Shown here piece by piece: positions 2,582-61,516 of a stretch of 64,000 nt of DNA; the stretch's first letter is position 1, and each line of letters starts with the position of its first letter. Both the position numbers and the translations under genes were made by a program. The stretch is from Eledone cirrhosa (lineage: Eukaryota). The notes below the pieces were generated by a model. That model made no database searches. It saw only the letters and a list, made by a program, of their open reading frames with translations, and was not told where the DNA came from. Where the stretch lies: contig OZ024743.1 of the NCBI GenBank assembly GCA_964016885.1, forward strand, positions 254,944,001 through 255,008,000. Reading direction: 5' to 3'.

Positions 2582-2952
2582 TGTAGGAGGTGAGTTTTAT
2601 TGTAGTACAATAAAGCAATGCAGATATCGGATAAGTAGCACTCTACAGTTTGTAGGACTGGAGTATAAATAATATAAGATCAAAAGATGGTTAAAAGAGT
2701 TCCATGTATTTTATTATGCGCATTTCAAAAATAAATATCATAATGAAATGACATTTGTGTTTTCGTCAGATAAAATAGGGAGATATGATATGTTGATTTA
2801 AAACTGCACTATTCACAAGTGTTTTTTAACCTTCATATCATGTCTCCCTATTTTATCTGACGAAAACGCAAATGTCATCTCATGATGATATTTGTTTTTG
2901 AAATGCGCATAATAAAATACATGGAACTCTTTTAACCATCTTTTGATCTTAT
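2582..2952 (-). mobile_element. Non-autonomous PLE-type hairpin element with HHR
   Basis: ~90 bp tail (2582-2670), then inverted arms ~2673-2792 / ~2833-2952; (TA)n on both sides. Confidence 0.75.
2849..2919 (+). ncRNA. Type I hammerhead ribozyme (mirror copy on - strand 2707-2777)
   Basis: tattttat CTGACGA [gcaaatgtcat..atgatatttgt] GAA ATGCGCAT A ataaaata: 8 bp stem I, canonical core, palindromic stem III. Confidence 0.85.
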
Positions 2953-3633
2953 ATATATATATATATATATATATATATATATATATATATATATATATAT
3001 ATATATATATATATGCATATATATAAGTATATATATATATATATATATATATATATATATATATATATATATATATATATATATATATATATATATGCAC
3101 ATATATATATATATATATATTTATTTTTGAAAATTAATTGAGTTCTTAACATGTGGAATTGATATTAGTTTTGAAATAACTAATTAACCCACGTATATTT
3201 AATATTTTACTCTTAATTCAGCCAGAGATTTACATTCCCGATTGCCCTTTAAAGCGTAACTTTCCGTATTTACTACGGTTATGAAATGCGGTATGTTATT
3301 CGCGTACGACTTCTGTTTTTAGCCTAAGAAAATATCTATATGCGTGTGTAATTAATACACGCATGCATTTATTTTATTAATTTCAATTGAGTTCTTAACA
3401 CGTTGGATTGATAATGTTTTTTGAAAAAACTAATTAACCCGCGTGAATATTATTTTTTCATTTCTCATTTATTGGTTGTCTCCCCTTCCCGCTTCGTGAC
3501 GCTATAATACTTCCTCAGTCAAAAACTGCTGGAATTTCAAATTTGGCGGTCATTCGATGCGTGAGGGAGCAGCTTAGCAGACACGATTTTTAACTGCGGT
3601 AAGAATTTTTTCTTATATTAAAGTTTAATGGGC

Positions 3634-3758
3634 TTCCACTGATGATTTATAAGCGCCCACCTAAATATATTCTTACATGAATATATATTAGGCTTCTACA
3701 TGAACTGGAAACATTCTCCTAATTTGTAGAAAACTTATAATGAAACAATTGTTTGGAA
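3634..3758 (+). ncRNA. Type I hammerhead ribozyme with extended stem II, in a repeat (~3630-3945) whose inverted copy lies at ~24485-24800
   Basis: ttcca CTGATGA t ttataag..cttataa t GAA ACAATTGT T tggaa. Confidence 0.75.
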
Positions 3759-4064
3759 AGAGAAATATATTTTAACTTTAATTATATCTCATAAAATAAT
3801 ACAACTGGCTTTCCACATAATACATATAGTTAGCACCCCAAACACTTAAATAGGGTTTATACTAACATATAACCTAATGTTTGTTGAGTGAGATGGTTAC
3901 CAGTCAGAATTTAGCTTTAAGCTATCTCTGTTATTGTATTAATTATATATATATATCTATATATATATGCATTTATATTAATATATATATGTATGCATAT
4001 ATATATAGTATTAATTATACTATTTATGGTTATGTAAATACAAAAACCTTTAGCAGTTATATAT

Positions 4065-59867: not shown

Positions 59868-60973
59868 ACTAGGGCTATAACACCCCACTTGCTGATTTTG
59901 TAATGGGTAACCCCTGCTTGCTAAGGTAGACGTAAGATCTTCTTTTATATCTTTTTATCGCTTCCTCTATATTTCCTTCTTCCCCCCATCCTTCCCTAGT
60001 CCTCCCACCCCAGTTCTCTTTCTTTGTCGTCGTCTTTTTCTCGCCCACCCGAGGCAGCCCCTCGGTCCTTTGTAGCCTCAGTACCCCCACCCCTTCCCCT
60101 ATTCTATGATAGATTTGGCCGACTCCGCTTTTTATAGCAGATGTGTTAGACCCCGGATACTTGCCCTCCTACCCGACCGCTGCCCCTTTTCCGTGCTTTC
60201 TATATTTCTTAGTTGTATCTTTGCTTTAATTTCTCGTTTATCAGTATTTTTTTTTTTGGGGGGGGGGTCGGAAGGATTCTGAATTAATCTTCCGTCTCAA
60301 ATTTTACATTTACTTCGTACGAGCTTTTAAGTAGCTTGCACTAGAACTTTTGTATCGTGGCGGCACCCTTAGAGATAGTATTAGTATTCTTTTTCGGGAT
60401 TCTGAATTATTATTTCGTATTAGTTTACTTTTTTGCACTGGGTGGTTGCTGGCCTTGTGCCTGGGGTAGAAACCTTTATTTATTATTTCGTGGTAGTTTC
60501 TTTAGTATTTTGGCCCCTCACTTGTTGACCCGTCACCGTAAGATATACTCGGTTTATTACTTATACCTCTTAAAAGGGTCTCATTATAATTCCGTCCCAC
60601 CTAGTATATTTTTTTTGCCCAGCAGTACCAGTGAGAGACTTAGGTCGTAGTAACCAGAAATTGTTTATTTTTTTTACATTTAATTGCTTTTTAACACTCT
60701 CAGTATTTTTCTATATATTTACCCCTTATTGTTATACTTATTGTTTCGACTTCCTCCTCCTCCCTCTCCCTAGTATCTTCTTTGACCTCATGCCCAGCTG
60801 TAGTCGGCATTATCAACGCATGAATGGGTCTCCTCCACCCCCTCTTCCTCTTTCTCCTACTGGCAGGTTTAGCTACCCCTTCCCTCCACAAATTGCCATC
60901 ATAGAATTATTATGTCTCAACAACAAACTTTTGACCAATCCTTGTGACAATCACTTTGACCATATATGGAATT

Positions 60974-61069
60974 ACCCCTTGAGAAGCTCGGCTATTCAAA
61001 TACCAGGATAAAAATGTTCATTTAGTCCAGAATTAGCCATCGAAACGGCTTGAGCTCAGCCGTCGGGGT
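60974..61069 (+). ncRNA. Type I hammerhead ribozyme, U3-A8 core, GUC cleavage triplet (mirror ~58846-58941 on - strand)
   Basis: acccc TTGAGAA gct cggcta ttc..gaat tagcc.tc GAA ACGGCT tgagctc AGCCGT C ggggt. Confidence 0.75.
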
Positions 61070-61194
61070 CCTACTCGTTCCTATTACCCACTCTACTACC
61101 CTAAGTATTGAGTACTTTGGTGCGTTATGGTCCACCTGGTTCCTTACCACATTTCCTCCGTTATATATATATATATATATATATATATATATAT

Positions 61195-61516
61195 ATAAAG
61201 AAAAGAGATGAAATCGAAAATGCAACTGGAGCCTTATTTTTTTAAAAAATATATATATTTATTTGGTTCCTTTACCGGTTTCGCAGTTCTTCTGCTTTTC
61301 AAAAGGTGAGTTGAGATGGAGGGTCTGTGGTTTTTCTCACATCTTTTGAAAAGCAGAAGAACTGCGAAACCGGTAAAAGAACCAAATAAATATATATATT
61401 TTTAAAAAAAATAAGATTCCAGTTGCATTTTCGATTTCATCTCTTTATCTTTATACTTTCACTCGTGTAGGACACCTCGGTTATTTTTCATTTTGTAAAA
61501 AAACCTCACTTTCTAA
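61195..61516 (+). mobile_element. Hairpin element with U3-A8 HHR, same family as 7151-7510
   Basis: Sequence identity with 7151-7510 in the opposite orientation; different fold-back point. Confidence 0.8.

Follow-up and report, generated by a model that had tools for sequence, protein, structure and literature searches.

Fold-back inserts and their coding relatives

The stretch considered here (the window) comprises 64,000 nucleotides of Eledone cirrhosa DNA (contig OZ024743.1, positions 254,944,001 to 255,008,000 of the forward strand), taken from a 3.0-Gb assembly (GCA_964016885.1); its GC content is 34% and (TA)n tracts are abundant in it. It holds 14 inserts which, as the initial annotation had proposed and self-alignment of each insert confirms, are all bounded by TA tracts and consist of an arm and its inverted copy, with arm-to-arm similarity of 87-99%. 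An unpaired tail of 38-107 nt is found on one side in 13 of them, the exception (15513) being symmetric. The 14 inserts belong to 11 families, named here by the start position of a window member, and loci fetched from elsewhere are given as L numbers. Judged from their sequence, 12 of the inserts are pseudo-long-terminal-repeat (pLTR) ends of coding Penelope-like elements (PLEs), assigned to Neptune/Nematis-type parents, Hydra-type parents and one unplaced parent; the two others, 19418 and 33925, are retrozyme-like tandem units without coding sequence. The elements are ordinary members of known clades in the published layout, and the interpretation given below is built on how their tailed and tail-less arms are paired.

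Several inserts are plain fold-back pairs (a strand is given only where one was assigned). The pair at 2583..2949 has a left tail of ~82-94 nt and hammerhead motifs at 2715-2769 (-) and 2857-2911 (+), the pair at 28169..28703 a left tail of ~95-99 nt and a hammerhead at 28324-28370 (-), and the pair at 54289..54827 a left tail of 78 nt and a long-stem-II hammerhead at 54416-54495 (-); all three are read as pLTR ends of Hydra-type PLEs. The pair at 7152..7506 (left tail 65 nt, U3-A8 hammerheads at 7293-7322 (-) and 7401-7430 (+)) is assigned to the pLTR end of a Neptune/Nematis-type PLE of 775 aa, and its family recurs at 61198..61515, with a right tail of 64 nt, a hammerhead at 61273-61302 (-) and a tail-less arm longer by 36 nt at the junction. 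The inverted pair at 32547..33758 (left tail 38 nt, partial hammerhead-like core only) belongs, as a pLTR end, to a second PLE of the Neptune/Nematis type. At 39518..39718 (left tail 80 nt) the arms end within hammerhead stem II; the family is that of 58834..61161, a 5'-truncated Hydra-type PLE with an inverted arm, a right tail of 80 nt, hammerheads at 58851-58936 (-) and 60979-61064 (+) and a GIY-YIG C-terminus at 59553-59867 (+). Another 5'-truncated Hydra-type PLE with an inverted arm lies at 4067..6836 (arms 4174-5040 and 5944-6833, left tail 107 nt, hammerhead 4220-4258 (-), GIY-YIG remnant 5688-5924 (-)). The end pair of a Hydra-type PLE at 15513..17332 has both arms tailed, a hammerhead at 15817-15929 (-) and a SINE-like (short interspersed element) insert at 16863-17029. 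Its description as a symmetric element of the kind of miniature inverted-repeat transposable elements (MITEs) with a nested insert was rejected, as it is one Hydra-type family of which this copy carries the tail twice.

Two inserts have a minus strand assigned and belong to one family. At 9276..11473 (-) there is a 5'-truncated reverse transcriptase (RT)/GIY-YIG PLE with broken frames at 10039-11249, an inverted arm at 11248-11472, a left tail of 47 nt and a decayed hammerhead. The long PLE at 28836..32416 (-) is built alike (5'-truncated, broken frames 29594-32328, inverted arm 32316-32415, left tail 86 nt), and RT and YIG motifs are readable in it; within it an Asn-rich open frame (31261-32328 (-)) is similar to the N-rich inserts described for rotifer Penelope elements in the relevant part of PMC3846280.

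The PLE origin put forward earlier is borne out by copies elsewhere, since in families 7152, 2583, 28169, 54289, 15513 and 32547 the arms continue into GIY-YIG or RT frames. Family 7152 (with 61198) extends into a GIY-YIG frame at L046 and an RT frame at L042. Around its long frames RT/endonuclease open reading frames (ORFs) of 769-842 aa were found in 20 of 20 loci, in 19 of which 7152 sequence is recognised as the 3' end, and one parent keeps an intact 775-aa RT/GIY-YIG frame with GxKF and DKG motifs, a CX4CxxC linker and a CCHH-type GIY-YIG. A partial tandem pLTR whose tail enters the ORF is present at loci L206, L208, L209, L213, L217, L223 and L340; in tandem copies of 7152 the tail passes through ATATATAC into the ATG, and entry of the tail into the ORF start is seen in L209 (family 7152) and L340 (family 32547). 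For family 32547 the parent is a 43%-identical relative, of which it forms the pLTR end. Copies of 2583 extend into a GIY-YIG frame at L230 and L236, and families 2583, 28169, 54289 and 15513 reach endonuclease frames 0.8-1.5 kb on which resemble window positions 611-1672; the frames at L236, L298, L230 and L265 have a CxCX5C linker and CxxC and CxH motifs, without CCHH.

Within the window, Hydra-clade endonuclease motifs are found at 611-1672 and 59553-59867, and coding remnants exist for 4067, 58834 (with 39518), 9276 and 28836. The label Hydra-type stands here for endonuclease-region motifs, and for 4067 and 15513 for tblastn matches to Hydra-type frames only. Pfam applied to the broken frames of the window gave weak RVT_1 matches and no GIY-YIG match; therefore, the endonuclease call rests on motifs read by eye. 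As regards transposases, the continuing copies lead to RT/GIY-YIG frames instead, no genome-wide transposase search having been made. Two further PLE pieces were observed in the window: a Hydra-type endonuclease frame of 353 aa at 611-1914 (-), 5'-truncated at a TA tract, with its pLTR expected toward the left edge, and at 24830-26497 (-) a single arm of another PLE family with a decayed GIY-YIG-like C-terminus and a long CA-rich 3' region.

The two non-coding inserts are built of tandem units. The 310-bp unit of 19418..23885 is arranged as 7 + 7.4 units head to head (junction 21586, right tail 41 nt), with 13 hammerheads in ~14 units; the evidence on this family comes from the window and three further loci. 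The insert at 33925..34742 consists of one ~550-bp unit plus 27 nt and an inverted arm at 34489-34742, with a left tail of 71 nt, and the same unit forms head-to-tail arrays elsewhere. The initial annotation had taken the inserts for a community of mostly non-coding parasites mobilised in trans. For 19418 and 33925 this is the natural reading, and they are likely copied in trans, perhaps from circular RNA; the reading does not extend to the other 12, which are collinear with coding PLEs.

Hammerhead motifs and TA flanks

Hammerheads were sought as type I motifs with a C3-G8 or U3-A8 core and a stem II of up to 110 nt; a scan limited to short stem II misses several motifs. The window gave 26 matches against 0-2 per shuffle in 10 dinucleotide shuffles, and all 26 lie within TA-bounded elements and read toward the TA-flanked end, the direction claimed earlier. 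The 14 inserts contain 24 of them, the other two (3639 and 24678) being in another family. Nine inserts pass the scan (2583, 4067, 7152, 15513, 19418, 28169, 54289, 58834 and 61198). In 9276 and 28836 the core and stem II are kept and stems I and III are decayed, and stem II covaries in family 9276; in 39518, whose family has a hammerhead, the motif is cut within stem II; 32547 and 33925 have partial cores only, and a borderline hammerhead was found in the 33925 family in two loci only. The pLTRs are thus described as carrying a minimal type I hammerhead, a predicted ribozyme. An Rfam scan of the window gave no hammerhead among the matches listed (150 of 333), which were microRNA-model noise only.

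As a genome-wide control, 79 hand-spaced stretches of 10 kb (790 kb in total) were searched. They gave 65 hammerhead matches against 3-7 in shuffles, so that the enrichment expected from the initial annotation is found outside the window as well. TA lies within 250 nt downstream of 51 of 58 strong hammerheads and upstream of 31, the background being 26%, and all four close opposite-strand hammerhead pairs that have no intervening TA and are single fold-backs point outward. Among 42 compact fold-backs of the control, 28 lie flush with TA at one end and 25-170 nt away from it at the other, one lies flush at both ends and 13 are arranged otherwise. From background rates of 3.8% and 13.1% about 0.4 of 42 would be expected in the flush-plus-tailed class, which upholds the proposed targeting of (TA)n. 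Exact matches to one 29-mer of family 7152 numbered 2,357. In contigs from independent runs TA is joined at the inner start of the 7152 family (7213), with many differing junctions; the pattern is therefore no assembly artefact.

Other TA-associated sequences occur in the window. A family present as TA-flanked single arms (3121-3943 and 24487-24802) holds the long-stem-II hammerheads at 3639 and 24678. A further TA-flanked single-arm family (7519-7692, 7952-8407, 23924-24113 and 52944-53089) has by eye a hammerhead-like CAGAAGA (U4A) core, and makes fold-backs elsewhere. Short TA-flanked pieces at 2105-2213, 2325-2507, 6935-7110 and 24251-24364 belong to further repeat families with 7-12 copies each among the fetched loci and are probably more PLE ends. 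A long interspersed element (LINE) in two frames, with APE endonuclease and RT (Pfam Exo_endo_phos_2 and RVT_1), occupies 12096-15400 (+) with TA tracts at both bounds. The SINE-like repeat (16863-17029, 26498-26665, 36945-37132, 41502-41704 and 53939-54118), often in (TAA)n runs, is also found inside family 15513 and in the arms of 58834; the window SINEs are presumably octopus-like. A tailed arm of the 39518 family (119 bp) is joined at 17450-19048, and also in L318, to unrelated sequence with a tandem duplication of ~500 bp. Small palindromes at 44071-44188 and 52500-52720 have no TA flanks, the first being two SINE-like ends that meet at (GAT)n. Long TA tracts are repeatedly broken by the palindromic ATGCAT (70 cases vs 34 for ATGT and 11 for ATAC).

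Start sites, pairing and junctions

Arms were counted if they start within a few bases of either of two sites and flush with TA, and pairs if converging arms have meeting inner ends. The arms of each family begin at one of two fixed sites. Of the TA-flush arms, 133 of 141 start at nt 1 or 62 in family 7152, 62 of 64 at 1-3 or 82-84 in family 2583 and 64 of 65 at 1-5 or 78-79 in family 39518; the inner start of family 15513 is at nt 167. At most start sites the element has a TA-like stretch where the target TA takes over. Folding of the 60 nt before each start site in nine families, without a covariation test, gave hairpins before most outer sites and no common structure before inner ones.

The two kinds of arm are combined one of each. 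Among same-family pairs that had not been selected by a tail-bearing query, a tailed arm faces a tail-less one in 37 of 37 (39518, 19; 7152, 8; 2583, 4; 9276, 4; 28169, 1; 32547, 1), for which the two-sided binomial p against the ceiling of 50% under independent choice is 1.5e-11. The query-selected loci show the same in 72 of 76, with three pairs both tailed and one neither; this count leaves out family 33925, whose internal tandem starts resemble ends and which was counted separately. Families 15513, 32547 and 33925 give a further 35 of 35 pairs, a count in which six pairs form one tandem cluster, some overlap with the 37 exists and the doubly tailed 15513 of the window is not included. The non-coding 19418 and 33925 obey the same pairing as the coding PLEs. 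At L322:12-1479 six fold-backs of the 15513 family stand head to tail, a local amplification of the finished hairpin.

Either arm can be the longer: in 114 pairs it is the tailed one in 27 and the tail-less one in 27, and the arms are equal in 60. An arm with an intact ORF that ends at the inner site faces a short tailed inverted arm in locus L207; in five of the 20 loci (L205, L208, L210, L216 and L224) such an arm is present and no inverted partner is visible. Single arms with TA on both sides occur in both the tailed and the tail-less kind; among TA-flanked single arms 27 of 31 are short or long, 22 of them at the preferred inner end.

That inner end is a hot spot recognised in four families (77/141, 34/64, 19/40 and 40/65 arms, proportions which are partly query-biased), and two of the four hot spots contain the palindrome CATATG. 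In family coordinates the hot spots span 203-216, 250-266, 305-325 and 129-145. Of 46 pairs in family 7152, 26 have both arms ending at the hot spot and nearly identical junctions. Where one arm runs past the hot spot (14 pairs), its partner ends there in one; both arms are therefore copied from the same template stretch. As arms run across the hammerhead cut site, the template was uncut. Cleavage by the hammerhead was rejected as an explanation of the inner end, since the hot-spot ends are located upstream of or inside the ribozyme and not at its cut site.

Comparison of 30 copies of 7152 shows constant outer ends and differing junctions. Since junctions vary between copies, the hairpin is rebuilt at each insertion and is not the moving unit, and the idea of independent hairpin parasites has to be given up for the 12 inserts that are ends of coding PLEs. 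Overlaps at the junction are mostly 0-8 nt and junction palindromes are common. Arms diverge by 0.7-2.9% within pairs vs 1.9-8.5% between loci; in 79 of 90 pairs the two arms are more alike than arms taken from different loci, and 146 non-consensus sites are common to paired arms, 16 of them private to the locus. Joins of mixed families amount to 1 in 38.

Origin of the inverted pairs and relation to known elements

The reading considered the most probable, with somewhat more than even confidence, is that the inserts are head-to-head pairs of PLE ends made by two target-primed starts on one RNA and joined at their 3' ends. The element's RT/GIY-YIG protein would likely cleave a (TA)n tract in both strands, and from each 3' end so produced a separate cDNA would be primed on one and the same RNA, one beginning at the outer and the other at the inner fixed site, with the spacing of the sites appearing as the tail. 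The two cDNAs would then be joined at their 3' ends via 0-8 nt of microhomology and filled in, and should one of them fail, a lone arm, tailed or tail-less, would be left. Short run-off arms would result from priming in the 5' copy of the pLTR and long truncated ones from priming in the 3' copy, very short pairs being presumably run-off copies of the 5' leader of the transcript, from its start site to the tail. A further-reaching version is held only slightly more probable than its negation: a protein dimer would prime both cut strands at two fixed sites, the tail would be the spacing of two active sites and the inverted copy the second cDNA, the genome's ~100,000 tiny TA-flanked hairpins would represent run-off copies, made in pairs, of the mRNA 5' leader, and two RTs would act simultaneously on a circular retrozyme RNA.

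An in vitro system offers a parallel. According to the parts of PMC11167929 that deal with it, the protein of Poseidon_Ac, a lizard PLE, is a predicted dimer, cuts both strands of an AT-rich target and extends both, and uses two internal RT start sites which bound the tail, the template RNA being uncut. The inserts resemble it in having two starts that bound the tail, in the proposed cutting and extension of both strands, in an uncut RNA template and in an AT-rich target. They differ in that the start sites in vitro show no strand difference, whereas here the starts are anticorrelated within an insertion; inverted pairs are not addressed in the relevant parts of that paper.

Several observations weigh against double priming. 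The start sites used in vitro, as described in the same parts of PMC11167929, are not homologous to the cut DNA, whereas the sites here have TA microhomology. The pairing rule has exceptions (two tails in L022, L206, L257 and the window's 15513, none in L212). In no more than 10 of 90 pairs is the partner strictly the closest of all arms, and arm similarity, which lacks significance in family 28169 (p = 0.11), might in general be due to gene conversion or to a single active source locus. Families 54289 and 9276 have no clear hot spot, and where CATATG is present the palindrome itself might favour joining. The proposed transcription start at the hot spot is suggested only by the clustering of ends and by what we take to be an initiator-like motif. 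An inserted palindrome can also be shortened later in either arm, so that a single fold-back could yield the 27:27 ratio.

A single fold-back of that kind is the subject of an unlikely yet serious alternative, in which one cDNA is primed at the outer site, self-primes at its 3' end and is copied back, the endonuclease resolves the product at the inner site, and later deletion yields unequal and single arms. It is close to published ideas, as self-priming was proposed in PMC3846280 and endonuclease resolution of the tail in PMC8557442, in the passages concerned, and it accounts no less well for the pairing of one tailed with one tail-less arm, for the similarity of the arms and for their origin in the same segment; the equal arms of 60 in 114 pairs and the common junction palindromes also suit it. 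However, the fold-back requires the tail on the longer arm, which is contradicted by 27:27, and it needs deletions to account for arms with an intact 775-aa frame whose end is the inner site and whose tailed partner is short or absent. In the experiments of PMC11167929 considered above, the RT starts in vitro at each end of the tail, and the 19418 arrays carry 3 and 4 arm variants which are not mirrored, though these are possibly later mutations or sequencing errors. Taken together, the evidence favours double target-primed reverse transcription on one RNA over the published self-priming. Double priming on two RNAs, with the start obligatory for each strand, is improbable; the templates would be, for example, the members of a hammerhead-paired RNA dimer or the pLTR copies at the 5' and 3' ends of a single transcript. 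PLE hammerheads with a palindromic stem III are thought to act as dimers (PMC4209133, in the part concerned), and two mixed-family joins (L012 and L274), both tailed plus tail-less, were met. At L012:1351-2460 a tailed 7152 arm directly abuts a 9276-type PLE at the latter's tail-less end, and the flanks on the two sides are inverted duplicates over 137 bp. Nevertheless, such joins are rare, L012 first begins the usual inverted arm and L274 meets at an internal TA run, which permits readings as deletion or switch; they were discarded as evidence for two RNAs, being too few and explainable by deletion. Short hot-spot arms are paired with long arms in only 1 of 14, and 32547 and 33925 pair alike without a full hammerhead.

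The model of the initial annotation, in which independent non-coding elements move as hairpins in trans, is regarded as very improbable. The tandem units of 19418 and 33925 agree with it, many 7152 copies are near-identical in junction (the 26 of 46 pairs mentioned above) and a short self-propagating pLTR-only RNA is possible for 7152; against this stand the collinearity of 12 inserts with coding PLEs, the nucleotide-level differences of junctions between copies and the frequency of single arms. Tc1/mariner MITEs have inverted ends and TA flanks, which the inserts resemble, and fold-back artefacts of assembly would also give inverted copies. Practically no weight is left to either: the ends are asymmetric, arm length is variable and the parents encode RT and GIY-YIG, only 1 of 42 compact fold-backs is flush on both sides and, as junctions vary, no fixed internal sequence exists, so that the earlier view of them as something other than MITEs is upheld; an artefact is contradicted by arms that differ by 1-13% and by the independent contigs with TA at the inner start and many junctions.

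Much of the arrangement is already published, namely the layout, the tail, TA targeting and opposite-strand hammerhead pairs. In the parts concerned, PMC8557442 describes an inverted 5'-truncated copy, a one-sided tail and a (TA)n bias of PLEs and lists octopus Hydra and Naiad families, PMC3846280 a tail on one of two inverted pLTRs, and PMC2377424 an internal promoter with initiator in the pLTR; further background is provided by portions of PMC8969392, PMC6765202 and PMC13282606. As described in the first three, insertions of endonuclease-positive (EN+) PLEs share with the inserts the head-to-head inverted pLTR with a tail on one end, a partial tandem 5' pLTR with the tail running into the ORF, the pLTR hammerhead and (TA)n targeting. 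By the same sources, the inserts differ in tail length (35-166 nt here vs 30-40), in the pairing, which is quantified here as near-obligatory one-of-each, and in that the majority of copies retain only 0.2-0.5 kb and favour one inner end. The present data add the two fixed starts, the one-of-each pairing, the 27:27 ratio of the longer arm and the common template segment. Neither the pairing rule nor double priming for PLEs was found in the literature searched, though older subscription-journal reviews may discuss them.

Clade features agree as well. As outlined in the relevant parts of PMC8557442, the Hydra clade, including Hydra-1_Obim, shares with 2583, 4067, 15513, 28169, 39518/58834 and 54289 the CxCX5C linker without CCHH, CxxC and CxH around conserved E and N, the hammerhead and insertion into (TA)n; the hammerhead row for Hydra-1_Obim in its supplement does not match the hammerheads of the window, and four short protein motifs from these elements were not found in the portions of the Craig supplement looked up. 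Family 7152 shares GxKF, DKG, the CX4CxxC linker and a CCHH-type GIY-YIG with the Neptune and Nematis clades in the descriptions available, and the assignment of 7152 and 32547 is by motifs that do not tell these two clades apart. Schistosoma minimal hammerheads, in the passages of PMC4209133 concerned, are similar in being opposite-strand pairs 100-700 bp apart in truncated PLEs with a U3-A8 core; arms, tails and pairing are not analysed in those passages, unlike here. Retrozymes have been described as non-autonomous PLE derivatives (bioRxiv 10.64898/2026.07.22.740005, in part). Animal non-LTR retrozymes, as presented there and in the relevant part of PMC7229834, resemble 19418 in being PLE-derived non-coding tandem units with a type I hammerhead, but 19418 consists of two arrays head to head with tailed and tail-less ends as in coding PLEs, and 33925 is without a clear hammerhead.

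The control gives ~28 compact hairpins per 790 kb, roughly 100,000 per genome by extrapolation; they are PLE ends, to be annotated with their parents and not as MITEs or separate parasites. For the in vitro PLE system, the one-of-each rule and the same-segment result predict that start sites on the two strands are anticorrelated within a molecule. The origin of the inverted repeats and of the one-sided tail of PLEs is named as open in the part of PMC8557442 concerned with it, and the quantified pairing rule makes this mechanistic question testable.

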